Virus record (IMG/VR): IMGVR_UViG_3300014202_000564
Strand: one strand, 5' to 3'
DNA: 64,000 nt
DNA from: a virus
Of this stretch, positions 36,554 to 57,808 are shown piece after piece. The notes beneath the pieces are model-generated. The model saw only the letters and a program-made list of their open reading frames with translations. It did not search any database and was not told the origin of the DNA. Made by a program: the position numbers and the translations under genes. Every line of letters starts with the position of its first letter. Position 1 is the stretch's first letter.

Positions 36554-36573
36554 ATGTATCCAATCAGATACAT
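36554..36573 (+). repeat. palindromic hairpin, variant of the cassette hairpin
   Basis: ATGTATC-CAATCA-GATACAT. Confidence 0.5.
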
Positions 36574-36610
36574 GAGTATTTTCACCATGTTATAGAAAGG
36601 AACTGTGAAC

Positions 36611-36871
36611 ATGGAAGCAACAGAATTGTTTGTCATACCTGGCATCTATGGTGTACCTGGTGTCAAGCGTATGTGGTATGACATAGGAGAGCGCACTTTT
36701 CATTTTATATTTGACAACACTGCAAGTGAATATGTAGCGACCGCAGAATACCTGTTACTCATGTCGGATGATGATCCACATTTTGACGGTGTTGGGGTTG
36801 GGGGTCGAGAAAAAATAAAAGAGTTTGTCAAGAGAATTCATACTTCCAGTAGCCTTGACACCATGCACTGA
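36611..36871 (+). CDS. hypothetical protein
   Basis: track ORF 36605 (GTG); ATG 36611. Confidence 0.5.
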   Translation: MEATELFVIPGIYGVPGVKRMWYDIGERTFHFIFDNTASEYVATAEYLLLMSDDDPHFDGVGVGGREKIKEFVKRIHTSSSLDTMH

Positions 36872-37049
36872 GATATGGTATCATGATATTGTAGAAAGAT
36901 ATTCTGTCATAGGCGGTGTGGATGGACACACTTGCATAGTGATGGGAAGCCGTAAAACTCGGCGGGTAACGGTCATGCAGAGACACCATCGAACCAGAAT
37001 CAAGCCTGGTCCTATGACATCATGGAGGACCCATGACACCAGATATTGA
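36825..37049 (+). CDS. hypothetical protein (weak)
   Basis: 74-aa track ORF overlapping both neighbours; no RBS seen. Confidence 0.3.
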   Translation: MSREFILPVALTPCTEIWYHDIVERYSVIGGVDGHTCIVMGSRKTRRVTVMQRHHRTRIKPGPMTSWRTHDTRY

Positions 37050-37212
37050 GTATATTGAATCCTTGCGCGAGCAAGCAAAAGACTTTACGATGGTGGCATT
37101 CTATGATAATATGTTACTGCGAATGAGGTATTCGCATATTAAGATGCTCGATGTATTCATGAGTACCATGCAACGGGGTCAATGGGTTTCTATTGAGGAG
37201 TACCATCCATGA
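37033..37212 (+). CDS. hypothetical small protein
   Basis: 59 aa, just below the track cutoff; stop overlaps the next ATG (ATGA). Confidence 0.45.
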   Translation: MTPDIEYIESLREQAKDFTMVAFYDNMLLRMRYSHIKMLDVFMSTMQRGQWVSIEEYHP

Positions 37213-37292
37213 GTGAAATTGATGGCACAGTGTGGATTGTGGTTGCTGGGTTGGTCTTATACTTCTTACTATGGGTGTATGACGAATGTTAA
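37209..37292 (+). CDS. very small membrane protein
   Basis: 27 aa, single TM; coupled overlaps on both sides. Confidence 0.3.
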   Translation: MSEIDGTVWIVVAGLVLYFLLWVYDEC

Positions 37293-37471
37293 CAATATTG
37301 GCATGGATACCAGTTGGTGCAGTCGGACTTGCTTGCTTGGTGGTGATCGGGATGCTTGCATGGGATCATCCCTATACTGCAGCATGGGTATTTGGTGCAC
37401 TCTGGTTCTTTTGGGGTGCGATTCACCTTGTGAATCACTATGACACCAATCCAAACAAAGATAATTGGTGA
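37286..37471 (+). CDS. small membrane protein (2 TM)
   Basis: 61-aa track ORF; preferred over alternative-frame 37213-37443. Confidence 0.5.
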   Translation: MLTILAWIPVGAVGLACLVVIGMLAWDHPYTAAWVFGALWFFWGAIHLVNHYDTNPNKDNW

Positions 37472-37659
37472 TGGACTCGCAGCTTTGCATTGTTGAGAAA
37501 GAAAAAATTCTTGAGTATATCCGTGCGGCCCACCTGTTGGAGCTACCCTATCGGATGTCATTGCATCTTATATTGAAGTTGACAAAGGGTCACTGTAACC
37601 CTATTGAAGTCGTTGCGCTCATGGATCAGGTGAATCCTCATTGGAAGAATCATGATTGA
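37471..37659 (+). CDS. hypothetical small protein
   Basis: ATG 37471 overlaps the upstream TGA. Confidence 0.5.
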   Translation: MDSQLCIVEKEKILEYIRAAHLLELPYRMSLHLILKLTKGHCNPIEVVALMDQVNPHWKNHD

Positions 37660-37924
37660 ATATATCTGCCGGGATTGGTATTGCCATAAAATTAGATTTG
37701 TGGTTGAGTTCTGTGGTCTGGTGATTGGCATTGCTATGTCCATCTTGTTGGCACTCACAACCCCTACGCCTCCAATGGTCTATGCGTATATTGGTTGGTT
37801 AATCTCCGCATGCTTGCTTGGTGGGGGTGCGTGGCATCGTGGGTCGTTTGGACTTACTGCTCTCTATGTTGCGTACTTTATCATTGATGGTATCGGACTT
37901 CTTCGAACCTTGGGGGTGCTATGA
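37652..37924 (+). CDS. membrane protein (3 TM)
   Basis: 90-aa track ORF. Confidence 0.55.
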   Translation: MIEYICRDWYCHKIRFVVEFCGLVIGIAMSILLALTTPTPPMVYAYIGWLISACLLGGGAWHRGSFGLTALYVAYFIIDGIGLLRTLGVL

Positions 37925-38163
37925 TGAACATACGCCAACAACGTAGCTTGCTGAACATGATGGAAGTGATTGAGGACATCCTCAAAGACTCATACCCAAG
38001 TTGTCATGTTTGCTATGATCGAGAGTGGATACCGGTGGACGCGCAAACCTTTATTCGGTGCTATGGTGCTCGCATGGGGCAGGGTCTTGCCATTAATATC
38101 GATGAAAAGATTGATGAGTGTTCGGTGCGCCGCGGATGGTGCACATGCCAAAGAGAGGAATAA
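37921..38163 (+). CDS. hypothetical Cys-rich protein
   Basis: 80-aa track ORF; ATGA overlap. Confidence 0.55.
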   Translation: MMNIRQQRSLLNMMEVIEDILKDSYPSCHVCYDREWIPVDAQTFIRCYGARMGQGLAINIDEKIDECSVRRGWCTCQREE

Positions 38164-38164
38164 C

Positions 38165-38242
38165 ATGGATACATTTGACTACCTGGTCATTGCGTTTCTC
38201 TCCATCATGGTTGGGTACTTCTTTCGAGTATGGACTCTATAA
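38165..38242 (+). CDS. very small membrane protein
   Basis: 25 aa, single TM; ATG 2 nt after the upstream stop. Confidence 0.3.
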   Translation: MDTFDYLVIAFLSIMVGYFFRVWTL

Positions 38243-38599
38243 CCCTGCTCTCTTTGCATTCGAAAAGATGAGCTTGGTGAGATCCGCGTACAACGTCACC
38301 CCTGCTTCCCTTCCACAATAGACCGCATAGGTTGCCAGGACCACATGAGTGGGCAACTCCCTCAGTTTGCTTGGTTGATTCGCTTCGAACATCGGGTGGT
38401 TGCTATGAACATGTAACACTTCCTGTGTGTCCAGGTTATAGAACGCATAATACGTTCTGCTCCCCTCATCCCAATAGCTCCTCAGATCCTTGGGTGCCCG
38501 TTCCTTGGGTTGCAAGAAGAACTTACGTCCTTTGTAATCAGGGAACGTGGCTTGAATGATGTGCTTTACGGACTTGAGATCTTTTCCTATGAGCTTCAT
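38237..38599 (-). CDS. hypothetical protein
   Basis: minus strand; ATG 38599 follows AAGGAGG; the in-frame upstream ATG 38629 sits 7 nt after the -10 of its own cassette promoter. Confidence 0.65.
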   Translation of the reverse strand: MKLIGKDLKSVKHIIQATFPDYKGRKFFLQPKERAPKDLRSYWDEGSRTYYAFYNLDTQEVLHVHSNHPMFEANQPSKLRELPTHVVLATYAVYCGREAGVTLYADLTKLIFSNAKRAGL

Positions 38600-38663
38600 G
38601 GTTGCCTCCTTGTTTTCTCCCCTGTCCATGATCTAAGCATACCATATTGGCAGATAGTGTCAA
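38600..38663 (-). promoter_or_regulatory. early-promoter cassette, minus strand
   Basis: read on minus: TTGACA (38663-38658), N16, TGgTATGCT (-10 at 38641-38636), TAGATC, ATG 38629, AAGGAGG. Confidence 0.6.
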
Positions 38664-38683
38664 GTCAACCAAATATTAAAAAT

Positions 38684-38743
38684 TTGACATTTTACGGAGT
38701 TATGGTAATCTGGTAACATGGGGAGTGTATCTAAAAGGATACA
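38684..38743 (+). promoter_or_regulatory. promoter plus cassette hairpin, no ORF downstream
   Basis: TTGACA 38684-38689, N16, TGgTAATCT (-10 at 38706-38711); hairpin TGTATC-TAAAAG-GATACA 38726-38743. Confidence 0.5.
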
Positions 38744-38800
38744 ATGAGTATACTTCTCCACAATACCAGATTACCAAATATATGGAAGCCTGTCAACTGT

Positions 38801-38814
38801 GTTCATTTTTGTAC
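38801..38814 (+). repeat. isolated copy of the iteron GTTCATTTTTGTAC
   Basis: exact 14-mer identical to the units at 36358 and 36474. Confidence 0.6.
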
Positions 38815-39013
38815 ACTGAGAGAACATTAAAAATAATTAATATTGGCTTCTGTGAGGCTTTGTGAGCATGGAACTTGCAAGCCTATGATTTTTGCAATTG
38901 CAAGAGTCGATGGTGTCATTTATACCACTCTATACACACACCCGCCCCTAGGGGGTTTCACCCTCAAAAATCAATTATAGTTTATCATAATAAAAAATCT
39001 TGTCAAGGGGGTC

Positions 39014-39093
39014 TTGACATCACATGCCAGTATGGTATTCTTGGATCATGATGATGACGCAAAAAGTAGATGATCTGAACTAGGAGGCACACA
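39014..39093 (+). promoter_or_regulatory. early-promoter cassette
   Basis: TTGACA 39014, N16, TGgTATTCT (-10 at 39036-39041), ATCATGATGA box with ATG 39048 (+7), 11-codon mini-ORF to 39083, AGGAGG. Confidence 0.65.
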
Positions 39094-39705
39094 ATGTCTA
39101 TTCGTATGATGGTAGACAAAGCTGAGTATGACAAGAACCCTGGTGAGGTTGAGTGCATTGAGAATTACCCAGGTCATGAGATTACGCGAATTCATCACAC
39201 CTATGCTTGTGGTAAGGGGTCGCATGAGGGCCGCGGTGAATCGTGCAGTCAATGTGTCAACTATTCGCCACTGTATATGAAAACGTCTTATGTGGGGTGT
39301 GTGGTCGATACCGGTGAGATCAATGGATATGATGACTCGGACTTTTACGCGGTTGTGTGGGATGATGCCAAACAGGAATTTAAACGAGTGGTCTATGCTT
39401 CAACTCGCGGCTGGTCCTATCCAAATGGTGCTTCGATTGATGCGACTCCCGAAATTGCTGCCAAGTATGCTGAGATGCAAGAAGCAAAATATAGAGCGAT
39501 ACAGGAACGTAAGCGGATGGACCGGTTGATGCGAGTGGAGCGCGGGAAGCAGGTTAAAATTGTTCGGGGTCGCAAGCTTCCAAAGGGATTAATCGGGATC
39601 TGTTTCTGGGTAGGTCAGACACGGTTTGGTTGGTCGGTTGGGATCGAGTCGGAACGGGGTCGAGAGTTCACAGCGTTAGGGAATGTGGAAGTGATTCTTG
39701 CTTGA
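39094..39705 (+). CDS. hypothetical protein
   Basis: 203-aa track ORF behind AGGAGG. Confidence 0.7.
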   Translation: MSIRMMVDKAEYDKNPGEVECIENYPGHEITRIHHTYACGKGSHEGRGESCSQCVNYSPLYMKTSYVGCVVDTGEINGYDDSDFYAVVWDDAKQEFKRVVYASTRGWSYPNGASIDATPEIAAKYAEMQEAKYRAIQERKRMDRLMRVERGKQVKIVRGRKLPKGLIGICFWVGQTRFGWSVGIESERGREFTALGNVEVILA

Positions 39706-39730
39706 CAATAACGGCAGACATGGAGGCACC

Positions 39731-39976: not shown

Positions 39977-40070
39977 TGTATCCTTTTAGATACACCAGAA
40001 AACCTGACACTTGACTATTCTGGCACCTATGGTATTCTTGGATCATGATGATCAAGACACCAAAGGAGAC
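39976..40070 (+). promoter_or_regulatory. hairpin + early-promoter cassette
   Basis: GTGTATC-CTTTTA-GATACAC 39976-39995; TTGACT 40011, N16, TGgTATTCT (-10 at 40033-40038); ATG 40045 (+7); mini-ORF stop overlaps ATG 40071. Confidence 0.65.
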
Positions 40071-40553
40071 ATGATGATTCAACCTCTCAAACAACGTAAG
40101 AATGAATGTTGGGTCACTTCGTTAGCAATGGTCACTGGAAAAGCGGTTGATGAGTTGTTGAAAGAATTCGAGACCCTGGCAGGTATGGAATACCATGCCT
40201 CGATTGCAGCACGGAGACCGGATGGGACACAAGATTTTACTTGGTTTCAGACAGCGAACACAATGATGAAACAGTATGGATTTCAGGGTCAACCCGGATC
40301 TACCTTTGCGACTGGACTATTCGATACCCCATTTCTGGGGTTGAAGCGAGTGAACCTCACTGAATCCTTGTTACATGGGAAGGGTATTTTGGGGGTCGCA
40401 TTGGGGAAGCGCACGGCACATGCGGTTGCGTTTGAAGATGGAAAGATCTATGAGCCGAACTGTGGAACCGGTGGCCTGCCATTCAAGGAGTGGAAAAAAT
40501 TATATCGAGTTCGAGTCTATCGGTGGCGCATTGATCGATGCCAGAAAGGATAA
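40071..40553 (+). CDS. hypothetical protein, possible papain-like cysteine peptidase
   Basis: ATG 40071 follows AGGAG; NECWVTSLAMV (Cys) and RTAHAVAF (His) suggest a Cys-His dyad. Confidence 0.35.
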   Translation: MMIQPLKQRKNECWVTSLAMVTGKAVDELLKEFETLAGMEYHASIAARRPDGTQDFTWFQTANTMMKQYGFQGQPGSTFATGLFDTPFLGLKRVNLTESLLHGKGILGVALGKRTAHAVAFEDGKIYEPNCGTGGLPFKEWKKLYRVRVYRWRIDRCQKG

Positions 40554-40555
40554 CG

Positions 40556-40771: not shown

Positions 40772-40786
40772 GGAAGGATTGGAGAC

Positions 40787-41185
40787 ATGGAACAGGATGA
40801 AATGGACGCGATGTTTAAACGGATCAGGTTAGATATCGCTCAGTATGACCTACGCCCAGGCACCGTTGTGGATCTGGGTGCAGAGCATGGAACATACATT
40901 GTGGCACTGACGATTCTTGGTAAGAGAATGGAGAGTCAACTACGAGATCGGAGAATTTGGAAGCTGTTCACACTGGTCAACTTGAGCTGCGGGATTACCT
41001 GGGCAGCACCAATTCCAGTCATGAGTGAGGGGACCATTGACATCAGGAAGCTGTTGAGGGGTGGGGATGACGAGAGAGCGCGGGTAACCAAGGTCACCTA
41101 TCAGGGGGGACTGGAGGAGAAGAAAAGGAAGTATCTGGTAGAGTGGGAAGGGAAGCGGACGTTCGAAGCGACTGTATCCAATTAG
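40787..41185 (+). CDS. hypothetical protein (paralog of 44534-44911)
   Basis: RIWKLFTLVNLSCGITWAAPIPVMSEGTIDIRKLLRG vs KIWALFCLVDISNGSIYEEPVPIMSEGYIDLRRLMG. Confidence 0.65.
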   Translation: MEQDEMDAMFKRIRLDIAQYDLRPGTVVDLGAEHGTYIVALTILGKRMESQLRDRRIWKLFTLVNLSCGITWAAPIPVMSEGTIDIRKLLRGGDDERARVTKVTYQGGLEEKKRKYLVEWEGKRTFEATVSN

Positions 41186-41225
41186 ATACACTTGACACTA
41201 TCTGCCAGTATGATAGACTTTGATC
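41173..41225 (+). promoter_or_regulatory. hairpin + early-promoter cassette
   Basis: TGTATC-CAATTA-GATACA 41173-41190; TTGACA 41192, N16, TGaTAGACT (-10 at 41214-41219); ATG 41226 at +7. Confidence 0.65.
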
Positions 41226-41336
41226 ATGATGAAGGTGATCAAAAGGGTAGCGAAGGAAATCAGGATTCTGGTGGAAGCATGGAAGCGGACTCAGCGCATG
41301 CCGTGCCCACAGTATACTGAGATCTTTGAACACTAG
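41226..41336 (+). CDS. 36-codon leader ORF starting at the predicted transcript 5' end
   Basis: MMKVIKRVAKEIRILVEAWKRTQRMPCPQYTEIFEH*; stops 9 nt before ATG 41346. Confidence 0.3.
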   Translation: MMKVIKRVAKEIRILVEAWKRTQRMPCPQYTEIFEH

Positions 41337-41345
41337 GAGGCAATC

Positions 41346-41584: not shown

Positions 41585-41779
41585 ATGATCATTGAAGAAT
41601 TCACACATAATAAGAGATATAGTGGGTTTACTATTCGTTTTCAGAACCGTCCAAGCATGATCTACACCTATGATTACCTGTTGACTCGTATGAACGTGGA
41701 CCCCTTACTCAAGACCCTTTCGCGGGAAGTCAAAGAGAACATACAGTTGTCGGTGTTTCGAGAGAAGAATGCATCATAG
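41585..41779 (+). CDS. hypothetical protein
   Basis: 64-aa track ORF behind GGAGG. Confidence 0.55.
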   Translation: MIIEEFTHNKRYSGFTIRFQNRPSMIYTYDYLLTRMNVDPLLKTLSREVKENIQLSVFREKNAS

Positions 41780-41783
41780 TGGC

Positions 41784-41810
41784 GAAACAATCAAAAAGAA
41801 TAGGAGCAAT
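41784..41810 (+). repeat. 27-nt direct repeat, copy 1
   Basis: GAAACAATCAAAAAGAATAGGAGCAAT, identical to 42038-42064. Confidence 0.8.
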
Positions 41811-41817
41811 AGGAGAG

Positions 41818-42033
41818 ATGATGAAGCAGAAAGATCATAGGTTGTCTAAGGGTGTGTTGGACCTATATGAGAGAGAAATCGACGGACTTGAGCGGCAGGT
41901 CCAGTGCATGGCTCTAGAGATTTATAGACAACAAGTTTCATTAAAACGTATGATAGAGGAACAAAAAGACAGGAAGAAGCAGGTTGAGAAGTTGATGCGC
42001 GTGGTGATTCAACATCACAAGTGTACATCCTAA
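41818..42033 (+). CDS. hypothetical coiled-coil protein
   Basis: ATG 41818 follows GGAG (track GTG 41779). Confidence 0.5.
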   Translation: MMKQKDHRLSKGVLDLYEREIDGLERQVQCMALEIYRQQVSLKRMIEEQKDRKKQVEKLMRVVIQHHKCTS

Positions 42034-42037
42034 TGGT

Positions 42038-42064
42038 GAAACAATCAAAAAGAATAGGAGCAAT
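42038..42064 (+). repeat. 27-nt direct repeat, copy 2
   Basis: GAAACAATCAAAAAGAATAGGAGCAAT; supplies the RBS of ATG 42068. Confidence 0.8.
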
Positions 42065-42067
42065 CAC

Positions 42068-42289
42068 ATGAAAGATGCACTAGGAAAAACGATTACAAAG
42101 GGATGCAAGATAGCAGGACTTGCACTCAGTTCATGGACTACGCCGTGGTTCTATGTCGGAAAGATTTCGGGAATGTCAAAACGGACTGACTCAGTGTATG
42201 TGAAGGTTGCAGGTGAGGAATTTCTTGTTCCTGCAGGGGAATGTGTCGTTGTGAAATCGGCACGGCGTGTATCCAAAAAGATACAGTGA
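42068..42289 (+). CDS. hypothetical protein
   Basis: 73-aa track ORF. Confidence 0.55.
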   Translation: MKDALGKTITKGCKIAGLALSSWTTPWFYVGKISGMSKRTDSVYVKVAGEEFLVPAGECVVVKSARRVSKKIQ

Positions 42290-42323
42290 CAATAATTGTC
42301 ATATTTTTAATGTTTCTGGTGAC

Positions 42324-42387
42324 TTGACAAGATTGGCATATATGCTAGACTCAGAATGTAAGGGAAATAAACAAGGGAGGTAGAAAG
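42324..42387 (+). promoter_or_regulatory. early-promoter cassette (no ATCATGATGA box)
   Basis: TTGACA 42324, N16, TGcTAGACT (-10 at 42346-42351), GGGAGG RBS; same layout as 57743-57808. Confidence 0.6.
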
Positions 42388-42948
42388 ATGGCATATATGA
42401 GTCAAGAGAAAAAGAAGAAGATTGCTGAGGAGCTGAAGAAGGCACTCAAGGGAACCGGACTCAAGTATACCTTGGGGGTACACAATCACAGCACATTGGT
42501 GATGAACATCAAGAGCGGTCCAATTGATTTCATCGGTAACCATGTCAAGACCATGTTGGATAAAGCGTATACGTTGCAAGATTACCAGAAAGAAGCAATC
42601 GAAGCTTTGCCCAAACAAGGGTACATGGATATCAATCATTATTGGTATCATGAGCATTTCACTGGGGTTGCGCTGGAAGTCATGAAGAAGATCATCGATA
42701 CCATGCACATTGGAAACCATGATAACAGTGATCCGATGACGGACTACTTCGATGTGGGATGGTATGTTGATGTCAACGTAGGGAAATGGGAGAAGCCCTA
42801 TGTATGCACTGCTCATGATCCGGCGATTGAGGATGCAATACAGAACGCGAAGGATGCCAAGAAGGTGGAATTGGAAAAGAAGATTGTGGAGTTGAAGGAT
42901 CAATTGAATCAAGCGGTGGTCCAGTATCAGGAGTTGGTAGCAGCATAG
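42388..42948 (+). CDS. hypothetical protein (paralog of 57809-58222)
   Basis: MAYMSQEKKKKIAEELKKALKGTGLKYTLGVHNHSTL vs MAYMSQERKKEIAEQLKKVLAGTGIKYTLGVDNHSTL; adds a C-terminal coiled extension. Confidence 0.7.
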   Translation: MAYMSQEKKKKIAEELKKALKGTGLKYTLGVHNHSTLVMNIKSGPIDFIGNHVKTMLDKAYTLQDYQKEAIEALPKQGYMDINHYWYHEHFTGVALEVMKKIIDTMHIGNHDNSDPMTDYFDVGWYVDVNVGKWEKPYVCTAHDPAIEDAIQNAKDAKKVELEKKIVELKDQLNQAVVQYQELVAA

Positions 42949-43397: not shown

Positions 43398-43498
43398 TGT
43401 ATCCTTTTAGATACACCCGAAAATTTGATACTTGACTTTCCTGGCACCTATGGTATTCTTAGATCATGATGATGAACAAGAAAACCAAGGGGGAAACG
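43398..43498 (+). promoter_or_regulatory. hairpin + early-promoter cassette
   Basis: TGTATC-CTTTTA-GATACA 43398-43415; TTGACT 43432, N16, TGgTATTCT (-10 at 43454-43459); ATG 43466 (+7, in frame); AACAAGAAAACCAAGGGGGA. Confidence 0.7.
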
Positions 43499-44487: not shown

Positions 44488-44533
44488 TTGACAAGCTCTC
44501 TACCACTTGATAGACTCTGAATCGGAGGCGGTG
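44488..44533 (+). promoter_or_regulatory. early-promoter cassette (no ATCATGATGA box)
   Basis: TTGACA 44488, N17, TGaTAGACT (-10 at 44511-44516), GGAGG. Confidence 0.55.
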
Positions 44534-44911
44534 ATGACAGACGAAAATCTACAAGAAATTATAGAAGATGTGGATAGAGAGATGGAGCGGTATTGGGTGA
44601 GATCGGGTGAACAGGTCACAATGAGGCGCGTCTTGACTGATGGTGAGTTTGTCGTCAGTCGAATCCTCATGCAGGGTGAGATCGCGCAAGCGTTGAATGA
44701 TAAGAAGATCTGGGCACTCTTTTGCTTGGTCGATATCTCAAACGGGTCGATCTATGAAGAACCGGTGCCGATCATGAGTGAGGGGTATATCGATCTGCGG
44801 CGGTTGATGGGATCTACCAAGATTGTGTACATGAATACGAGGGGGTTTGTGAGGACCTATAAAGCAACAGCACATGATGGGTACGAATTCATTATGAAGG
44901 TGAAACGATGA
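44534..44911 (+). CDS. hypothetical protein (paralog of 40787-41185)
   Basis: ATG 44534 follows GGAGG; shared PVPIMSEGYIDLRRL core. Confidence 0.65.
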   Translation: MTDENLQEIIEDVDREMERYWVRSGEQVTMRRVLTDGEFVVSRILMQGEIAQALNDKKIWALFCLVDISNGSIYEEPVPIMSEGYIDLRRLMGSTKIVYMNTRGFVRTYKATAHDGYEFIMKVKR

Positions 44912-45510: not shown

Positions 45511-45626
45511 GTGTATCTAAAAGGATACACTTTAAACATGAGTGTTTGGAGACCCCTTGACAAGATTGGCAGCTATGGTATGATTAGACCATGATGATGA
45601 TGAACAACAAAACCAAGGGGGAAATC
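45511..45626 (+). promoter_or_regulatory. hairpin + early-promoter cassette
   Basis: GTGTATC-TAAAAG-GATACAC 45511-45530; TTGACA 45557, N16, TGgTATGAT (-10 at 45579-45584); ATG 45591 (+7, in frame); AACAACAAAACCAAGGGGGA. Confidence 0.7.
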
Positions 45627-45938
45627 ATGGAACATCTGACAACCAAGATCGAGGCGCTTGCGGTTGAGTTGAACAAGCTGGAAGCTGAGGATTTTGCTCG
45701 AAGGGGTTTCACACATCCCCATGATAGATGGCACTTGAAGAAGGTGGGGAAAAAGTTCGCATACCTGGATTGTGGTGGGTCTGGTGCATTTCTGGTTGAA
45801 AGTGCAACAGGGGAATTGTACAATATTAAAGGATATGGAGTGCCGGATTACAACAAGAAAAAGAAAGCGGATATCGGGAACATTGCAACAGTGAATCCGA
45901 GGGAGTTGCATGCAAGACGGTGGAACTACCTTCGATAG
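45627..45938 (+). CDS. hypothetical protein
   Basis: ATG 45627 follows AAGGGGGA (track start 45591). Confidence 0.65.
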   Translation: MEHLTTKIEALAVELNKLEAEDFARRGFTHPHDRWHLKKVGKKFAYLDCGGSGAFLVESATGELYNIKGYGVPDYNKKKKADIGNIATVNPRELHARRWNYLR

Positions 45939-46805: not shown

Positions 46806-47270
46806 ATGGAACTTGTGACACAAATCTACGGTGTGATGTGGATGATAGTGATTGCTATGTTGGTTGTGGTGTTCTGCTCTATCGCGGTGCTCAGTGTGCG
46901 CGATTCTCGTAGAAAAGCAGCAGATCTAGACCGACGCTCTAAATTACATGGTCGGTATGACGTGTCCGGTATTTCTGTATCGGTCAATGGGTATCATGGC
47001 ATCATTACAAACATGAGTCTCATGGGAGCAGGAATTACTCTCGATGAACCCATTTCACCATTGCATCAGGGTCCGTATGTGAGGATCAAACTGAAATCTG
47101 ATGATGAAGTCACGATTATCAGCATGAATGCTTGGCTCACCAAAACACAAACCTACAGTATGAGACAGATCCATGTGGTATTCGATACACATGACGCACT
47201 GTCTTACCGTGAGGAACTATCTGCTCTTATCACCCACTACTGGATGCGAAAACATAGTGTATCCTTTTAG
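46806..47270 (+). CDS. membrane-anchored PilZ-like protein
   Basis: N-terminal TM; DRRSKLHGR ... ITNMSLMGAGITL gives a good (D/N)xSxxG motif but a non-canonical RxxxR. Confidence 0.5.
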   Translation: MELVTQIYGVMWMIVIAMLVVVFCSIAVLSVRDSRRKAADLDRRSKLHGRYDVSGISVSVNGYHGIITNMSLMGAGITLDEPISPLHQGPYVRIKLKSDDEVTIISMNAWLTKTQTYSMRQIHVVFDTHDALSYREELSALITHYWMRKHSVSF

Positions 47271-47348
47271 ATACACCCCCCTTGACACTATCCGTTGATA
47301 TGGTATTCTTAGATCATGATGATGAACAAGAAAACCAAGGGGGAGAAC
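47257..47348 (+). promoter_or_regulatory. hairpin + early-promoter cassette
   Basis: GTGTATC-CTTTTA-GATACAC 47257-47276 (contains stop 47268-47270); TTGACA 47282, N16, TGgTATTCT (-10 at 47304-47309); ATG 47316 (+7, in frame). Confidence 0.7.
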
Positions 47349-47526: not shown

Positions 47527-49485
47527 GTGAAAATGATGACGAGTTTGGTAGTTACGGGTATTTGGTTGATGGTAATTTTTGCCGCAGTGGTATCAAAACA
47601 ACGAAAAGTCGCATTGATGTTGAGCGGTCTGCTCTATGTGCGCTACATGGTCTGGCGTGTCACTGAAACAATCCCCACTGATGAAACGTGGTCATTGGTT
47701 GCAGGTATTGTTTTGTGGGGTGCAGAGTTATATGGGACCATTCAGTTTGGATTTTTTGCGTTTCAAACTTGGCATGGGTTTCATACAACCCCCAAACCGG
47801 ACAAGGTTGAACCTCTTAGTGTGGATATGTTTGTCTGTGTGGTCCAAGAACCCATTGAACTCCTGAGACAAACTGTTTATGGTTGTTTGATGCAGCGGGG
47901 TCGGTACTCCATCACTGTTCACATTTTGGATGATGGAAAGCGCGAATCAGTGCGACTGTTGGCAGAGGAATTGGGGTGTCGCTATCACACCCGGACCAAT
48001 ACTCCCCAACATGCGAAAGCTGGGAATATTAATGCGGCATTACCTCGAACATCTGGGGATGTGATTGCAATATTTGACGTGGATCATGTACCCACAGAAA
48101 ACTTTGTGCAGGAGACACTACCTCATTTTAGTGATCCTAAAGTGGCGATGGTGCAAACTTCACAACACTTCTATAATCCTGACATCTTTCAATCTGGGCT
48201 ATCGCGGAAGATTCAGAACGAACAGGAACTCTTTTTCTCTGTCCTGCAACCTGGGAGAAATGCACACAATAGCGCATTCTTCGCGGGGTCTGGTGGGTTG
48301 GTGCGCCGATCGGCTCTATTGGAAATTGGTGGCTTCATGACTCAGACGATTACCGAGGATATCCATACAAGCATGGAACTCCATTCGCGGGGATGGAAAT
48401 CGGTCCATGTGAATCAACCCTTATCAGCAGGACTCATGCCGGAAACGTTTCATGGGTATGTGAAGCAGCGGAAGCGGTGGGCGATTGGATGTATGCAAGT
48501 GTTCTTTGGTGACAATCCGTTATTGAAGCGCGGGTTGACGTGGCAACAGCGGATCGATTATCTTGGATCAATGTTCTACTTCATGTTTGGGTTTCCTCGT
48601 ATGATCGGGTTGGTTGCACCACTAACAATGCTTTTGTTTGGAATCACCCCAGTTGCAACCGATCTGTGGCACCTAGTGATACAATTTGGTGCAGTGTACC
48701 TGGCACTCATTGCCACCATGCATCTTTCTGTTGCTAGGATGCGCAATCCGTTTGCTTCTGATATCTATGAAGTAGCGATGGCACCAAGTCTGTGTCGAGC
48801 AGCATTGTCGATTTGTTTTCCTCGAAAAGAACGAGTGTTTGAAGTTACCCCAAAGGGTGAGCAGCAGGATCATGGGGCGAGCATGTGGGCACCCACGTAT
48901 CCTTTGATGGTGCTTGCTTGTTTGTTGGGGTTGGGTATAATCCTGGGTGCATTTGAATTGCAGAGTGGGGATTATCATCTTGGAGTTCCATATGCGATGG
49001 TCTGGGCAACTATCAATCTGGGGATGGTACTTGCAGCTCTTTGGACAGCTCAACCAACAGAGCATCGCCGCGGTGCATTCCGTCATGTGCGGCAGGGGTT
49101 GCATAACATTCCCGCTCTGATAGGTGCAGAATATGGAAAGGTGTATGATTTGAGCATGACCGGTGCAGCAATAACCCTGACATCAATGTCACCAAAATTC
49201 TTGGTGGGGAAGCGGGTTCCGGTTGCATTTAATGATGAAGATGTGGGTATAGTATTTGTGCTCATGGCAACCATTGTTCGTCTAGATGGTATGCGGGTGT
49301 CGGTGAAATTTGATTCGGAGGATATGAAACATGTGGAAGGTCAACTTATCACTCTACTGTTTGGTCATAGTGGAGTGTGGGAAGATGAACGCGGGTTGAA
49401 AGTTTACCCAGAGTTAGAAACCTCTGCAGTGCAGCAAATTGAAACGCATGTGGCACAGGACCAACAACGAAGGGAGTTGTTATGA
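47527..49485 (+). CDS. bcsA: cellulose-synthase-like processive GT2 with C-terminal PilZ domain (BcsA-like)
   Basis: LDDG, HAKAGNIN, FDVDH, QTSQHF, FFAGSG, TEDIHTS, QRKRWAIG (QxxRW); multiple TM spans; PilZ RRGAFR + DLSMTGAAI. Confidence 0.85.
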   Translation: MKMMTSLVVTGIWLMVIFAAVVSKQRKVALMLSGLLYVRYMVWRVTETIPTDETWSLVAGIVLWGAELYGTIQFGFFAFQTWHGFHTTPKPDKVEPLSVDMFVCVVQEPIELLRQTVYGCLMQRGRYSITVHILDDGKRESVRLLAEELGCRYHTRTNTPQHAKAGNINAALPRTSGDVIAIFDVDHVPTENFVQETLPHFSDPKVAMVQTSQHFYNPDIFQSGLSRKIQNEQELFFSVLQPGRNAHNSAFFAGSGGLVRRSALLEIGGFMTQTITEDIHTSMELHSRGWKSVHVNQPLSAGLMPETFHGYVKQRKRWAIGCMQVFFGDNPLLKRGLTWQQRIDYLGSMFYFMFGFPRMIGLVAPLTMLLFGITPVATDLWHLVIQFGAVYLALIATMHLSVARMRNPFASDIYEVAMAPSLCRAALSICFPRKERVFEVTPKGEQQDHGASMWAPTYPLMVLACLLGLGIILGAFELQSGDYHLGVPYAMVWATINLGMVLAALWTAQPTEHRRGAFRHVRQGLHNIPALIGAEYGKVYDLSMTGAAITLTSMSPKFLVGKRVPVAFNDEDVGIVFVLMATIVRLDGMRVSVKFDSEDMKHVEGQLITLLFGHSGVWEDERGLKVYPELETSAVQQIETHVAQDQQRRELL

Positions 49486-49901
49486 AATATGTGGTGGTGA
49501 AGACTGAGTTTGATGATCTGGTGCCGATTATATTTCCTGAGACCATTCCACATAGGACGATTCCAAAAGAGAGTTACAACCATACTGCAGTGAGTGCTGG
49601 GTTTTGTGCTCTCAAGCAAGGCAAATGGGTTGCGTATGGGGAAAGTATAGGTCTTAAATTGAAATCTAGACCGGAGGATACCGATTTACTAAATCGCCAT
49701 TTTAGTGACACTGATACAAAACATGAGGTTGAACATTTGAAGGCTCATGTGTTCGGGATGCTGCAGATTATTGAGTTGATGAATAATAATGCACTACCGA
49801 AAGACTACGCGACTCTGAACAACTTGCAACACTGGATTGATAGTGCTCGAAAGGCAGCAAATGGTAACTGTATCCAAAAAGATACACCCACCAAAACATG
49901 A
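49482..49901 (+). CDS. hypothetical protein
   Basis: 139-aa track ORF; ATGA overlap with the bcsA-like stop. Confidence 0.6.
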   Translation: MKYVVVKTEFDDLVPIIFPETIPHRTIPKESYNHTAVSAGFCALKQGKWVAYGESIGLKLKSRPEDTDLLNRHFSDTDTKHEVEHLKAHVFGMLQIIELMNNNALPKDYATLNNLQHWIDSARKAANGNCIQKDTPTKT

Positions 49902-49938
49902 CGCTTGACAGACCGGTGGGATGTGGTAGACTTAAATC
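49869..49938 (+). promoter_or_regulatory. hairpin + early-promoter cassette
   Basis: TGTATC-CAAAAA-GATACA 49869-49886 (inside the upstream ORF 3' end); TTGACA 49905, N16, TGgTAGACT (-10 at 49927-49932). Confidence 0.65.
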
Positions 49939-50103
49939 ATGATGAATATGACGAAAATAAAAGAATTGGTTCTAGACTGTGAACGGTTGGTCAAGCGGGT
50001 AGAGCGTTTGGTTGAAGCGGATGCAGCAGATGATGTGTTCTTTGCAGCACTGAGGGTACCAAAAGAGTTGGTGGGGATAAGCCTAAAGAATGCCCAAAAG
50101 TGA
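49939..50103 (+). CDS. hypothetical small protein (candidate leaderless start)
   Basis: 54 aa; ATG 49939 lies exactly 7 nt after the -10; no RBS. Confidence 0.4.
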   Translation: MMNMTKIKELVLDCERLVKRVERLVEADAADDVFFAALRVPKELVGISLKNAQK

Positions 50104-50256: not shown

Positions 50257-50405
50257 AGCTCGTATGCGCATGGTGTCTACAAGAGGGGAAACCTGCGGAT
50301 ATGGGGGACAAGGAACCCCTAGACGATACGCGGGTGAGTCATACGATCTGTGATGATCATTTTAAGCAGTTTGATGCTCAATATGGGGACCCACATAAGA
50401 CTTGA
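50253..50405 (+). CDS. small Cys-containing protein
   Basis: 50 aa; CAWC...CDDH; stop lies inside the next -35. Confidence 0.35.
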   Translation: MKLVCAWCLQEGKPADMGDKEPLDDTRVSHTICDDHFKQFDAQYGDPHKT

Positions 50406-50470
50406 CAATTTGGACGGGTGTGGTAGACTTAAATCATGATGAATGACCAACAAAACAAAGGGGTGAAATC
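50402..50470 (+). promoter_or_regulatory. early-promoter cassette
   Basis: TTGACA 50402, N16, TGgTAGACT (-10 at 50424-50429); ATG 50436 (+7); mini-ORF stop overlaps ATG 50471. Confidence 0.65.
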
Positions 50471-50965: not shown

Positions 50966-51076
50966 TGTATCTAAAATGATACACCCAGAAAGTATATATT
51001 TGAGGACTTGACATTCTGGCAGACTTTGTTATACTCAGATCATGATGAATGACAAACATAACAAAGGGGTGAACTG
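50965..51076 (+). promoter_or_regulatory. hairpin + early-promoter cassette
   Basis: GTGTATC-TAAAAT-GATACAC 50965-50984; TTGACA 51008, N16, TGtTATACT (-10 at 51030-51035); ATG 51042 (+7); mini-ORF stop overlaps ATG 51077. Confidence 0.7.
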
Positions 51077-52514: not shown

Positions 52515-52765
52515 GGATCAATAGAAAAAAGCTTCTTGTCCGATGGAGCAAAAAGGAGAATGATTTTTTCATTAGCTATCCATCCAGACCGGATGGGCAT
52601 CTAGCATCCAATGTGCTCTTCTCTAAGAGAATGTACCCAAAGTTTGGTGATAGGAAACCTGGTGAATTTCCTTGGGATTTTGACCCTTCGTTTATTGAGG
52701 AACTTGAGAAGAGGGGATACGACACCAAGACTCTAAGATTATCTGTGGAATTGAAGAAGACTTGA
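52487..52765 (+). CDS. hypothetical protein
   Basis: 92-aa track ORF. Confidence 0.55.
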   Translation: MVAEVGDSVRINRKKLLVRWSKKENDFFISYPSRPDGHLASNVLFSKRMYPKFGDRKPGEFPWDFDPSFIEELEKRGYDTKTLRLSVELKKT

Positions 52766-52799
52766 CAGGCGCCAGGGAGTTTGGTATCATGGAGATATT
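52762..52799 (+). promoter_or_regulatory. early-promoter cassette (short)
   Basis: TTGACA 52762 (overlaps the upstream stop), N17, TGgTATCAT (-10 at 52785-52790), GGAG. Confidence 0.5.
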
Positions 52800-54471: not shown

Positions 54472-54482
54472 TCGGGGGGAAT

Positions 54483-54641: not shown

Positions 54642-54662
54642 TCATCTAATTTAGGAGGCACC

Positions 54663-55141: not shown

Positions 55142-55147
55142 GAAGCT

Positions 55148-55426
55148 ATGGACGAGTATTTTATTCGCTGTGAATGTTTTGCTGAAATGATTCACGTTTG
55201 CCGGGATCGTGACGATGGAGAAGTGTATATGTCAGTCTACGTACCTCGCGGTAGGGGTAAACTGGCATGGAAATACCGGTTGCAACACATTTGGAGAATA
55301 CTTACTAAGGGATATCCTTGGCAGGATGAAATCATTTTAGGCAAGGCAGAAGCAGCGAGATTTGGTGTATGGTTGTTAGAGTCGGAAGAAAAGAAATTCG
55401 TGGACCCAGAAAATTTGGGTGGATAG
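55148..55426 (+). CDS. hypothetical protein
   Basis: 92-aa track ORF. Confidence 0.6.
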   Translation: MDEYFIRCECFAEMIHVCRDRDDGEVYMSVYVPRGRGKLAWKYRLQHIWRILTKGYPWQDEIILGKAEAARFGVWLLESEEKKFVDPENLGG

Positions 55427-55525
55427 TGGTCAACTATAGTTCACTGGAATCGATTTCCCCACCATTTGGTAAACTCACCTTTACCACATACCATAACTCA
55501 TTGATTTACATAGAGTATTTTCCAT

Positions 55526-55591
55526 TTGACAAACCAATTCCCCTTTGATAAGGTTATATCGTAATGATTGAACAACAAAGGGGGAATCGAG
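55526..55591 (+). promoter_or_regulatory. early-promoter cassette (degenerate box)
   Basis: TTGACA 55526, N17, TGaTAAGGT (-10 at 55549-55554); ATGATTGAACAACAAAGGGGGA. Confidence 0.45.
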
Positions 55592-55756
55592 ATGTTTAGA
55601 GTCACATTCAACAGTGATCGAGAGGGGAATGAGCAGAAGGATTTTGCCGATAAGTCATGGGGGAAGTCCATCGGTCACATTGTCACTAAGCTGATTTCTC
55701 ATGGTGAGGAATGCGGGCATAACGACAAATTGACCATCACAATAGAATGGATTTAA
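55592..55756 (+). CDS. hypothetical small protein
   Basis: ATG 55592 follows AAGGGGGA (track 55568). Confidence 0.5.
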   Translation: MFRVTFNSDREGNEQKDFADKSWGKSIGHIVTKLISHGEECGHNDKLTITIEWI

Positions 55757-55983
55757 CAATGCGACATGATCAACTTGTGATGCAAGCGATGAACCATTTA
55801 TCTGAAGCAAGAGAGCTGTTAGATAAACTGGTTGATGAGCAGTTTCAACCAAACTTCGAAAAGTTCTCACAGGTGGTCGATGCAAGGGAAAATGTACGGG
55901 TGGCACTGACTGGGGTATCCATCTATTTTACTGAGTTAGTCCTCGAAAACCTCAAAAAGGAGCAGAACAATGGAACTGTGTAA
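55747..55983 (+). CDS. hypothetical protein (possible frameshift donor)
   Basis: 78-aa track ORF; contains C-AAA-AAG at 55953-55959. Confidence 0.55.
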   Translation: MDLTMRHDQLVMQAMNHLSEARELLDKLVDEQFQPNFEKFSQVVDARENVRVALTGVSIYFTELVLENLKKEQNNGTV

Positions 55984-56048
55984 TCGGTTGTCGTTTTCAC
56001 AATTTTGTTGGTTGCGCAAGATCATGCGAACGTTGCGAGCGGAAAAGA

Positions 56049-56207
56049 ATGGTTAAAACGGACGCGGTGAGAATACGAAAAACTCTTATCGAGTATCTAT
56101 ACGCGAAGGCACAAATGAGAGATTGGCATGGTGTGAGTGACGCAGCAAACGATCTGAGGGAACTGGAAGCTCGGTACCCATTCCTCAAGGAGAAAGATAC
56201 ATTATGA
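56049..56207 (+). CDS. hypothetical small protein (frame open upstream to 55935 with no start codon)
   Basis: 52 aa from ATG 56049; ATGA overlap with the next gene; the upstream in-frame stretch is Cys-rich. Confidence 0.4.
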   Translation: MVKTDAVRIRKTLIEYLYAKAQMRDWHGVSDAANDLRELEARYPFLKEKDTL

Positions 56208-56413
56208 TTACGACGAACCAGACCGGTCGAGAGGTAGAGTTTGAAGTGGCGGGTGAAGAGGATGATGTGCATATTTCTTGGATGGTGTTTACTGACACCC
56301 AAGAAGAAGCGGATGATGAGACAGTTGAATGGGTCGAAGAGAATAAACCAGAGCTGTTATTTGAAGCATGGTTTGGTAGTCAGGTGGAACGAACTGAATA
56401 TCTATATGGGTGA
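56204..56413 (+). CDS. hypothetical acidic protein
   Basis: 69-aa track ORF. Confidence 0.55.
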   Translation: MITTNQTGREVEFEVAGEEDDVHISWMVFTDTQEEADDETVEWVEENKPELLFEAWFGSQVERTEYLYG

Positions 56414-56418
56414 ATAAC

Positions 56419-56730
56419 ATGGAACAAGAACGAACCAAAGAACAGATTTACGACGAAGAAATTGCACCAGTTCTCCTTGCACTCGGTGAGAAAATAAAGA
56501 AGCTCGATATGAGCATGGTGGCAGTTGTGGAATATGCACCAAGTGAGCGCGGAGCGACCAAGGTAATCGGCAAGGACTCTGGGTTAGAAATGAAAATGTT
56601 GAGTATCTGTGATCAAACAGCACCGAATGTTGATGGATTTATGCTTGCATTAAAGAGATACTGTTATCAAAACAATATTGATGTGAGTTCATCTATGTAC
56701 TTGTCGGATTGGGGGAATAAGAGTCGATGA
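56419..56730 (+). CDS. hypothetical protein
   Basis: ATG 56419 (track GTG 56410). Confidence 0.55.
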   Translation: MEQERTKEQIYDEEIAPVLLALGEKIKKLDMSMVAVVEYAPSERGATKVIGKDSGLEMKMLSICDQTAPNVDGFMLALKRYCYQNNIDVSSSMYLSDWGNKSR

Positions 56731-56969
56731 GTAAAAAAGGATTCGTGAAGCACACCATTGAAATTGATATTCCAGCGGGGAGAGATCCGCTGTCATACTT
56801 GAAAGATGCTCTAGAGGATGCGATTCAACATAACTATGAAATGGTGATGTTGGATCTGACGAAAAGACCACACATTAACGAGAACCTGATGAGGGTGGCT
56901 GCAGAGATATATCGAAAGAACATTGAGGAATATAAGCAAACCAAAGGAACGTTGAGCGTGATTGTGTAG
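56727..56969 (+). CDS. hypothetical protein
   Basis: 80-aa track ORF; ATGA overlap. Confidence 0.55.
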   Translation: MSKKGFVKHTIEIDIPAGRDPLSYLKDALEDAIQHNYEMVMLDLTKRPHINENLMRVAAEIYRKNIEEYKQTKGTLSVIV

Positions 56970-56992
56970 TAATAACAATAAGTTACGATTAC

Positions 56993-57054
56993 TTGACAAA
57001 CATGAGACCCCGTATTATACTTTGTGCATAACACAGGATAACAAAGGGGGAGCT
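56993..57054 (+). promoter_or_regulatory. early-promoter cassette (no ATCATGATGA box)
   Basis: TTGACA 56993, N17, TATACT 57016-57021; AACAAAGGGGGAG RBS. Confidence 0.5.
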
Positions 57055-57669
57055 ATGGACTTATTGACACCATATCTTGAAAAGACCAAGCAGGAGATTT
57101 CCGGTATCGTAACTGAGTTTGGACCCCCAATCACAGGAACTCCAGATGCACCAACCGAAAAACAAATCAATTTCTACAAAAGTTTAGTGATGGGTAAGGA
57201 TCTGATTGATACGCAACGGTACCAGCTTATGACCAACCTTTCCAAATTGACTCGCAAAACCATATCAGACACCATTTCATGGTTAGTGGGTATTCCCTGG
57301 AAAAAGAAAGAAGTCGTTGTAAACACACCAGTTGCACCACAAATTAGAACGGTCACCTTGAACCCAGGACGGTATGCAATAAATCACCCCTCTGGTGAAC
57401 TCAGGTTTTATCAGATTGATAGACCGGTTCAGGGTCGATGGGCTGGTGTGGTATTTTTGTCACAGTTGAGTGGTGAAAATCACATCGCAATACGTGATCG
57501 AACCGAAAAGGATTTTATATTTTCACTGATAGCAATGAATCCAACAGAGTCATTGAAGCTGTATGGTCAAAAGATAGGTCGTTGTGGTCACTGCAAAAAG
57601 ACCCTAACAGATCAAGTTTCTAGGGATTTTGGCATTGGACCGGTTTGCAGGAAGGTGTTGGGAATTTGA
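57055..57669 (+). CDS. hypothetical protein with C-terminal CxxC domain (DUF6011-like)
   Basis: ATG 57055; C-terminal GRCGHCKKTLTDQVSRDFGIGPVCRKVLG; N-terminal PTEKQINFYKSLV shared with the 248-547 product. Confidence 0.55.
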   Translation: MDLLTPYLEKTKQEISGIVTEFGPPITGTPDAPTEKQINFYKSLVMGKDLIDTQRYQLMTNLSKLTRKTISDTISWLVGIPWKKKEVVVNTPVAPQIRTVTLNPGRYAINHPSGELRFYQIDRPVQGRWAGVVFLSQLSGENHIAIRDRTEKDFIFSLIAMNPTESLKLYGQKIGRCGHCKKTLTDQVSRDFGIGPVCRKVLGI

Positions 57670-57701
57670 CACATTTTTGTCAAGTGTCCTAAGTCGTTGA
57701 G

Positions 57702-57808
57702 TGTATCTAAAAGGATACAGTAGAATTGACGGTTTAGGAGACTTGACAACTTATATATGCCATGATAGTCTTAGAACGTAAGAGATAAACAAATAAACGG
57801 AGGATGAA
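57702..57808 (+). promoter_or_regulatory. hairpin + early-promoter cassette
   Basis: TGTATC-TAAAAG-GATACA 57702-57719; TTGACA 57743, N17, TGaTAGTCT (-10 at 57766-57771); ACGGAGG RBS. Confidence 0.6.

Follow-up and report, generated by a model that had tools for sequence, protein, structure and literature searches.

The stretch of viral DNA analysed here (the window; 64,000 nucleotides of the IMG/VR record IMGVR_UViG_3300014202_000564, about 38% of the genome) contains, between 36.5 and 57.8 kb, an array of short repeated cassettes lying between groups of small open reading frames (ORFs). A complete cassette includes a palindrome of fixed sequence, a predicted sigma-70-type promoter and a conserved box carrying ATG codons at the predicted transcription start. 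All genes of the window except two are located on the plus strand, and the T4-type core genes include those for a gp43-like polymerase, UvsX (5656-6687), a gp41-like (DnaB-like) helicase, primase, NrdA and ThyX. The gp43-type DNA polymerase gene (2830-5463) matches phrog_262 (5.5e-303), with a best identity of 49% to the gp43 of a T4-like cyanophage. Judged by these genes, the source genome is a divergent, uncultured T4-type phage.

A scan of metagenome contigs for the promoter-plus-box pattern yielded relatives at 70-80% DNA identity, with several cassette copies each. The main ones are ERZ761584 NODE-650 (L017), OFRM01000009.1 (L024 and L021; hereafter OFRM) and WBZQ01000032.1 (L015 and L028; hereafter WBZQ); protein look-ups added L030 (163 kb; L030r is its reverse complement), L036 and the more distant L038 and L041. 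The same palindrome, promoter and box are present in at least six related metagenomic contigs. By this conservation the cassette is clade-specific, and not particular to one genome as a preliminary description of this DNA had proposed. Among GenBank phages, neither 42-52 kb nor 5-25 kb of the window has a megablast match, the whole cassette has no blastn match, and the protein encoded at 45627-45938 has no tblastn match. In IMG/VR, the promoter-plus-box pattern is without a match, and the palindrome gave, among the matches listed, only single, chance-level ones. In Rfam, no family reaches the gathering score. Contigs L163-L170 (P0092 contigs) were rejected as cassette carriers, being cassette-free and derived from another T4-like phage; likewise, the single GTDB match, a contig binned with a Nitrospirales metagenome-assembled genome, 62% GC, is cassette-free.

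All three sequence patterns that define the array exceed their expected counts by far. The palindrome TGTATC-N6-GATACA occurs in 11 exact copies (0.21 expected), all within 36555-57719; the extended promoter TTGACW-N13-14-TGnTAnnnT has 21 matches (0.22 expected), 18 of which lie in 38.6-57.8 kb; and a 41-nt pattern joining the promoter to the ATCATGATGA box has eight matches (0 expected), with a ninth copy carrying the variant ACCATGATGA at 45588. TTGAC(A/T) was found at each of the 17 positions listed in the preliminary description as cassette -35 elements, and the absence of the full form from the first 36 kb also holds: nothing comparable occurs in 1-36 kb, where a profile built from relatives gives no match better than E=0.13. 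The figure of about 17 copies of one cassette, however, is an over-count. The profile was built from 38 promoters of related contigs only, so that the window serves as an independent test, and it identifies 11 strong sites (E<1e-6), at 38665(-), 39013, 40009, 41189, 42322, 43430, 45555, 47280, 49904, 50400 and 51005, and three marginal ones, at 57741, 39009(-) and 44487. The sites at 38684, 52762, 55526 and 56993, which had been included as cassette copies, are generic sigma-70-like sites (profile E>=0.4 or no match), and a purine-rich leader, thought to be present in nine to ten copies, is found in its long form, AACAAGAAAACCAAGGGGGA, in three only. An unbiased repeat search recovers a 45-nt family of nine copies (D1). 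The count thus settles at 11 palindromes, 11-14 family promoters and nine complete units of palindrome and promoter. Along the region the elements are as follows.

36555-36572, plus strand: lone palindrome TGTATCCAATCAGATACA; no family promoter 3' of it; next ORF at 36611; hairpin at the same place in L036.
38600-38665, minus strand: leftward family promoter; -35 38663-38658, -10 38641-38636, partial box ATG 38629; hidden Markov model (HMM) E=8.6e-9; predicted to drive the gene 38237-38599(-).
38627-39050, unstranded: non-coding promoter hub of 430 bp; architecture also in L017, OFRM, L019 and L020.
39013-39093, plus strand: family promoter without palindrome; -35 39014, box 39045; ATG 39048 opens an 11-codon upstream ORF (uORF); main start 39094.
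39977-40073, plus strand: full cassette; palindrome 39977-39994 abuts the upstream TAG; -35 40011, box 40042; 9-codon uORF with its stop overlapping the main start (40071/40074).
41173-41345, plus strand: full cassette; palindrome 41173-41190 with the upstream TAG in its loop; -35 41192, box 41223; box ATG 41226 opens a 36-codon ORF without a Shine-Dalgarno (SD) sequence; next SD-led start 41346.
42268-42387, plus strand: second-type cassette; palindrome 42268-42285, -35 42324, ATGTAAGGG after the -10; main start 42388; duplicated with its gene at 57702-58222 (D3/D4).
43398-43498, plus strand: full cassette; palindrome 43398-43415, -35 43432, box 43463; ATG 43466 in frame with main start 43499.
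44488-44533, plus strand: marginal family promoter with 17-nt spacer, no box and no palindrome; main start 44534; HMM E=0.06.
45512-45626, plus strand: full cassette; palindrome 45512-45529, -35 45557, variant box 45588; ATG 45591 in frame with main start 45627.
47258-47348, plus strand: full cassette; palindrome 47258-47275 with the upstream TAG in its loop; -35 47282, box 47313; ATG 47316 in frame with main start 47349.
49869-49938, plus strand: full cassette; palindrome 49869-49886, -35 49905, box 49936; SD-less ORF 49939-50103 from the box ATG.
50402-50470, plus strand: family promoter without palindrome; box 50433; 12-codon uORF, its TGA overlapping main start 50471.
50966-51076, plus strand: full cassette; palindrome 50966-50983 abuts the upstream TAG; -35 51008, box 51039; 11-codon uORF, its TGA abutting main start 51077.
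52762-52790, plus strand: generic sigma-70-like promoter with extended -10, non-family; position conserved in L030 and L036.
55526-55554, plus strand: generic sigma-70-like promoter, non-family; position conserved in L030.
56993-57021, plus strand: generic sigma-70-like promoter without TGn, non-family.
57702-57808, plus strand: second-type cassette; palindrome 57702-57719, -35 57743, ACGTAAGAG after the -10; main start 57809; HMM E=0.011; orthologue in L030r at 18931-19023.

Palindrome and promoter

In the promoter units of the window, ACTTGACA is followed by a 16-nt spacer containing TGGCA, then by TRTGn and a -10 of the form TAnnCT. The consensus derived from the relatives has the same ACTTGACA and 16-nt TGGCA spacer, followed by ATGrTAkACT. 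Plus-strand sites that match at least 10 of 12 positions and carry the TG number 14 in 36-56 kb and one in 16-36 kb. The family promoter is predicted to be a sigma-70-type promoter of the -35/TGn/-10 class with extra conserved positions. In a second type of cassette, the box is replaced by NTG-TAR four bases 3' of the -10; this arrangement is seen in the copies at 42324 and 57743, in L030, and six times in L038. The forms observed are ATGTAA, ACGTAA, TTGTAG and GTGTAG (42352-42361, 57772-57781, L030r at about 19012, and the six in L038), and they may represent a mini-ORF with adjacent start and stop codons, right at the transcript's 5' end.

The palindrome has the consensus (G)TGTATC-N(A4 or T4)N-GATACA(C). 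Its centre, N-A4-N or N-T4-N, occurs in both orientations, including at positions that are orthologous. Its arms are invariant: over 148 kb of the window and relatives, there are 26 exact and four one-mismatch copies without any compensatory change, and in the window there is no one-mismatch copy besides the 11 exact ones. Nine of these 11 end 1-38 nt 5' of a -35 (chance probability about 1e-16), and five of the 14 family promoters are without a palindrome. The position of the element is also tied to the preceding gene. In seven of the nine palindrome-promoter units, the stop codon of the upstream ORF abuts the stem-loop (39974, 50963), is part of its loop (41183, 47268) or falls within 3 nt of it (42287, 43394, 45506). 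The flanks are asymmetric: AG precedes the palindrome and CCC follows it. The arms and centre have a 6-7/6/6-7 architecture resembling that of a recombination core; no integrase or resolvase domain was found among the window ORFs of at least 150 aa that were scanned. The distance between palindrome and -35 was also analysed for helical phasing, and the apparent period of about 11 bp (p=0.026) was discarded, being lost after de-duplication (p=0.21). Overall, the invariance and the orientation-free A/T centre favour recognition by a protein, whereas the tie to stop codons and the asymmetric flanks favour a role in the transcript.

At the promoter hub, two outward promoters, 38663(-) and 39014(+), make up an inverted repeat of 38 nt. 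Between them, the convergent promoters 38684(+) and 38796(-) face the palindrome 38726-38743 across a 22-nt inverted repeat, and there is an extra leftward site at 39006(-). A motif of the hub, CATTWTTGTACAC, is conserved. Counterparts of the hub are located at 4040-4330 in L017 and 3090-3370 in OFRM, and the genes flanking it switch side and strand among the relatives.

Box, leader and predicted translation starts

Conservation extends beyond the promoter into the predicted transcript, at a point to which the preliminary description had not drawn attention. In 31 of 32 box-type cassettes (from five relatives as well as the window), the ATCATGATGA box has its first ATG, preceded by C, at the seventh base after the -10 (6 nt between), which is the position where sigma-70 transcription is expected to start. 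The leader that follows is T-poor and purine-rich, and leads to a strong SD-led start 20-46 nt 3' of the box ATG; in most cassettes, an SD of the type AAGGGGGA or GGAGG lies 5-10 nt before the main ATG.

Read from the box ATG, 23 of the 32 cassettes have a frame that continues uninterrupted into the SD-led gene. In the other nine, this frame forms a uORF of 7-13 codons whose end lies between 13 nt before the main start and 4 nt past it, the stop codon overlapping or abutting that start (ATGA, TGATG) or falling in the SD. The distance from box ATG to main start is a multiple of three in 16 of the 24 cassettes with a clear SD-led start (p=9e-4), and in nine of 13 when the cassettes are collapsed to about 13 families (p=9e-3).

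A stronger argument for translation from the box ATG than this excess of in-frame distances is provided by the gene for a conserved 'LVxDCERLV' protein. This gene has, both in the window (49939-50103) and in L030, neither an SD nor any start other than the box ATGs, and in the family alignment the conserved protein begins at most 10 residues from the box ATG 49939; in L017, WBZQ, OFRM and L005, members of the family have an in-frame SD-led start. At least three SD-less ORFs lack another start (window 49939, L030r 12512 and L019 690), the ORF in L019 beginning at the box and comprising 85 codons. Two genes are already called from a box ATG in the JGI annotation. Taken together, the box ATG at the expected +1, the SD-less genes and the reading-frame pattern suggest that early mRNAs of this phage may be leaderless: transcripts probably begin with AUGAUG and the 5' AUG is probably used, giving a predicted dual-start cassette. 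The 130-aa ORF 38237-38629(-) was also tried as a leaderless gene and was rejected, as its homologues set the true start at M11, behind an SD (gene 38237-38599).

Rearrangement in related genomes and gene content

The window is collinear with L030 over 28.98-38.6 kb and 52-59.3 kb. The intervening 38.7-52 kb (13.3 kb), which contains all the box-type cassettes, corresponds to only 3.4 kb in L030 with a shuffled gene order. The flanks are also collinear with L036 and L017, and the length of the 38.7-52-kb interval differs by about 10 kb. Across the gene maps of six relatives, the same modules recur in differing orders; for example, the gene 38237-38599(-) is located on the other side of the hub and on the other strand in L017 and OFRM. 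The generic promoters at 52762 and 55526 are stable in position in the collinear flank, whereas the family cassettes lie in the shuffled zone. By these comparisons, the cassette-dense stretch is a hyperplastic region between conserved blocks.

At finer scale, borders of homology coincide with cassettes. Six genomes (the window and five orthologous loci) have nothing in common 5' of the orthologue of 45627-45938 until the palindrome or the promoter, where homology begins. Between OFRM and WBZQ/L017, homology sets in exactly at the 5' edge of a palindrome. Between L017 and WBZQ (95.4% identity over 2669 bp), the identity starts inside the promoter. Among near-identical strains of the relatives, four structural differences end in a cassette, namely a deletion, a duplication and two insertions. 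L033, which is 99.5-99.9% identical to L030, lacks about 498 bp comprising two small ORFs, a palindrome and a promoter, and the junction of this deletion is a 19-nt stretch, CACATGGAGGACATCATGA, common to two direct cassettes. The same contig carries a 99-bp tandem duplication of a whole cassette. In L017, L019 and L020 (89-99% identical), the same hub promoter box is directly followed by nothing, by an 85-codon ORF or by a 58-codon ORF. The crossovers that can be resolved fall in the promoter, box or leader, and not in the palindrome. An apparent difference in gene content among L030, L031 and L032 was dismissed as a gene-calling artefact, their DNA being 99.9% identical.

Cassettes resemble those of their own genome more than their positional counterparts. 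In 22 of 52 cases, as compared with 7.7 expected, the nearest neighbour of a cassette belongs to the same genome (p about 2e-6), and this includes the cassettes that precede one shared orthologous gene in L030, L036 and the window. This within-genome similarity requires exchange between cassettes. A segment of the L030 homologue of the gene at 45.6 kb was considered as a recent transfer on the basis of 95% protein identity, and was rejected since its DNA is only 77% identical. The same homologue is split in L030 (reverse complement, 11855-12329) by about 470 bp between its N- and C-terminal conserved parts, which could be an insertion or an intervening element.

Several genes in and beside the array are worth recording. 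Two pairs of small genes in the region are paralogous, 40787-41185 with 44534-44911 and 42388-42948 with 57809-58222; the latter pair (about 72% DNA identity) has been duplicated along with its palindrome and promoter. A 46-nt direct repeat (41765-41810 and 42019-42064; 87% identical) takes in the ends of consecutive small ORFs (41585-42289) together with their ribosome-binding sites, suggesting tandem gene duplicates within one module. The ORF 46150-46797 matches LuxI-type autoinducer synthases (Pfam Autoind_synth, E=3e-10; homologue at L036 6339-6899); it resembles a synthase of quorum-sensing signals carried by the phage, a hint that the host may be a proteobacterium. A 650-aa protein encoded at 47533-49485, without a relative in IMG/VR, combines a family-2 glycosyltransferase/cellulose-synthase-like domain with a C-terminal PilZ domain; this BcsA-like protein may respond to cyclic di-GMP. 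The ORF just before its gene (46806-47270) has a weak PilZ match (E=4e-4). Such BcsA-like/PilZ cargo is unusual for a lytic T4-type phage. Outside the array, a SegE-like GIY-YIG homing endonuclease gene (31697-32173) is oriented on the minus strand within a core whose other genes are on the plus strand, with homologues at the same place in L030 and L038. Adjacent paralogous genes for S-adenosylmethionine-dependent methyltransferases (16593-17330 and 17362-18048; repeat D5, 70% identical) belong to a block that also holds glycosyltransferase, cytidylyltransferase and HAD-hydrolase genes; this block may serve the modification of DNA or of surface sugars.

Possible roles of the array

Promoter-early stem-loop (PeSL) cassettes have been described in three pairs of cultured T4-type phages, RB49/phi1, T4/PST and KVP40/nt-1 (Arbiol et al., 2010, PMC2839356; Comeau et al., 2014, PMC4122927), and terminator activity and mini-circles have been shown for the PeSLs of RB49 (PMC2839356, PMC4122927). 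Because the flanks are collinear and the middle is shuffled, because cassettes are similar within a genome, and because strain-level end points lie in cassettes, we consider it likely that the array described here is made up of early expression cassettes of the PeSL type, located in the hyperplastic region of this uncultured T4-type phage. The resemblance, already noted in the preliminary description, stands with respect to the T4-type genome, the layout (an intergenic stem-loop, a near-consensus sigma-70 promoter, an SD and a start), the clustering among small accessory ORFs of a hyperplastic region, the lineage-specific consensus, and the indels or replacements between close relatives that end in cassettes, which in this case are seen in the relatives. 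It does not extend to the stem-loop, which is without terminator features in silico, and which is invariant in sequence rather than merely structured: the stem is a fixed, AT-rich TGTATC/GATACA with an A4/T4 centre, whereas PeSL stems are variable and G/C-rich (GGGG...CCCC, A3-4G3...C3T3-4). Unlike PeSLs, the cassettes also have no clear AT-rich UP region and carry a conserved +1 box with start codons, and the crossovers resolved are located in the promoter, box or leader, whereas those of RB49/phi1 are in or beside the stem-loop.

Under the PeSL-type reading, the full unit would run from an invariant palindrome on or near the preceding stop codon through a very strong host-type promoter, the ATCATGATGA box and a purine-rich SD leader to one to five small genes. 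By analogy with T4 early promoters, host sigma-70 RNA polymerase would fire at every cassette right after infection, making each small gene group an autonomous expression unit, and ribosomes would probably read the 5'-terminal AUG of the transcript. The palindrome would mark the 3' end of the upstream unit, as an attenuating or message-stabilising RNA hairpin or as a protein site. The cassettes, being 45-75 nt long and arranged in direct and inverted orientation, would be substrates of the general recombination system of the phage, presumably involving UvsX; exchange between them would delete, duplicate, insert or invert modules and would homogenise the cassettes within a genome.

A number of observations weigh against this reading. 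The palindrome does not look like a terminator: the predicted RNA fold has 6-9 bp and -4.9 to -10.5 kcal/mol and no U-tract, the 3' sequence is C-rich and not U-rich, and the combination of a G+C-rich stem with a U-tract, characteristic of intrinsic terminators, is not found in it. Terminator-like sites are not enriched in the region (10, as compared with 13.1 expected), and only one palindrome is flagged on the plus strand. A clear AT-rich UP region is not evident upstream of the -35s, where the 22 nt average 60% A+T as compared with 55% for the region, and the stretch just after the palindrome is C-rich. In the diverged relatives, the gene junctions of the window are broken in 24 of 24 cases with a cassette and in 57 of 66 without (Fisher p=0.11); this test is uninformative for the window because the relatives are so diverged that 81 of the 90 junctions are broken. 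The strain-level indels that do support breakpoints at cassettes come from the relatives and not from the window; the contigs concerned have low coverage or little length, and a contig end lies within 35-104 nt of the L033 junction. In addition, some rearrangements have no intervening cassette; for instance, 46.1 lies beside 50.6 in L017, WBZQ and OFRM. As for the box, the cassettes share a common descent and their ATG triplets may slip, both of which confound the excess of in-frame distances; counted by distinct leader lengths, only five of 11 are multiples of three.

Some of these points are accommodated if the palindrome is a sequence-specific protein site on double-stranded DNA or on an RNA stem, serving a regulator or insulator, or a recombinase or nuclease at the cassette borders, and is not a terminator or attenuator, with the promoter acting as proposed above. 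This idea, to which we give somewhat less than even credence, fits the invariant arms without compensatory change, the low stability and missing U-tail, and the A4/T4 centre in either orientation, as a symmetric site on duplex DNA predicts. It also fits the retention of the same palindrome in L038 and L041, where the transcribed box differs, and the hub palindrome lying 3' of two convergent promoters. However, the 1-38-nt range of distances to the -35 shows no phasing that survives de-duplication, the flanks and the tie to upstream stops suit a transcript-level role, no recombinase or obvious regulator is found among the window ORFs of at least 150 aa, and the resolved crossovers avoid the palindrome. 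A bolder version, in which the palindrome (7-6-7) is cut or paired by a dedicated recombinase or nuclease, and the array is an actively shuffled, integron-like platform in a lytic T4-type phage whose cassettes each have their own promoter and leaderless 5' AUG, seems to us very improbable; if true, any captured ORF would be expressed at once. Recombination core sites and the attC sites of integrons have short inverted arms around an asymmetric centre, and their gene cassettes are gained, lost and inverted. The present palindrome is similar in its 6-7-bp arms, its 6-bp asymmetric centre, its location at cassette borders in both orientations, and the gain, loss and inversion of the genes concerned; it differs in that no cognate recombinase was found in the window, the junctions are in the promoter or leader, and the cassettes have their own promoters.

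It is also conceivable, if unlikely, that the cassettes are only strong early promoters and punctuation, with plasticity arising from illegitimate or micro-homology recombination at any gene boundary and from relaxed selection on accessory genes, cassettes and indels coinciding because both are typical of early regions. The many broken junctions that are free of cassettes and the rearrangements inside promoterless modules would then be expected, and the 99-bp duplication in L033 did use an 8-nt micro-homology, ATGAAACT, and not cassette homology. In contrast, the deletion in L033 has 19 nt of identity between two cassettes at its junction, the borders of homology between L017 and WBZQ and between OFRM and WBZQ lie in or at cassettes, homogenisation within genomes requires inter-cassette exchange, and the generic promoters of the flank stay put, whereas family cassettes occupy the shuffled zone. 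A further alternative concerns the ATCATGATGA box, which might act at the level of DNA or polymerase and not as a translation start, as an early shut-off operator, as a -10-like, sigma-dependent pause element (CATGAT/GATGAT) for the loading of a factor, or as an optimal initial transcribed sequence. We regard this as possible but rather doubtful. The box is anchored 6 nt after the -10 and not to the gene start, which lies a variable 20-46 nt away; ATCATGAT is a self-complementary 8-bp palindrome; CATGAT and GATGAT score as -10-like hexamers; and the spacer TGGCA is likewise conserved, as T4 early promoters carry consensus beyond the sigma-70 elements (PMC2988021). Nevertheless, all 32 box ATG frames either enter the gene or stop close to its start, the excess of distances divisible by three persists when counted by family, and at least three real ORFs have neither an SD nor another start.

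The promoters and predicted starts can likewise be compared with known systems. Like the T4 early 'uber' UP/-35/TGn/-10 promoters (Hinton, 2010, PMC2988021), the family promoters have an excellent -35, TGn and -10 with extra conserved positions, are present in many copies before small prereplicative genes, and would presumably be used immediately by unmodified host RNA polymerase; unlike them, they have TTGACA and not a GTTTAC-like -35, a 16-nt TGGCA spacer, a TAnnCT -10, no evident UP element, and a transcribed box with ATG at +1. This last feature, in which the -10 is placed 6-7 nt before an ATG and an AUG-first transcript is predicted, together with the SD-less genes, recalls leaderless mRNAs. 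Such mRNAs include that of lambda cI from PRM and those of many actinobacterial and Deinococcus genes. Unlike these, most cassettes here also have an SD-led start 20-46 nt 3', in frame or coupled, giving the predicted dual start.

The PeSL concept itself is already known; the new elements are the strain variants found in nature, the palindrome with its invariant arms, and the prediction of a leaderless or dual start. PeSLs are still a proposal for the swapping of accessory genes in T4-type phages, and an independent, uncultured lineage with its own cassette sequence, in which strain variants and homogenisation are seen, widens the evidence for cassettes as recombination substrates. The fixed palindrome (GTGTATCTAAAAGGATACAC) provides a concrete bait for finding a binding protein, and the predicted +1 ATG allows a sharp and cheap test of leaderless or dual-start early mRNAs in a T4-type phage. 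If true, such starts would change the annotation of early genes in phages of this kind.

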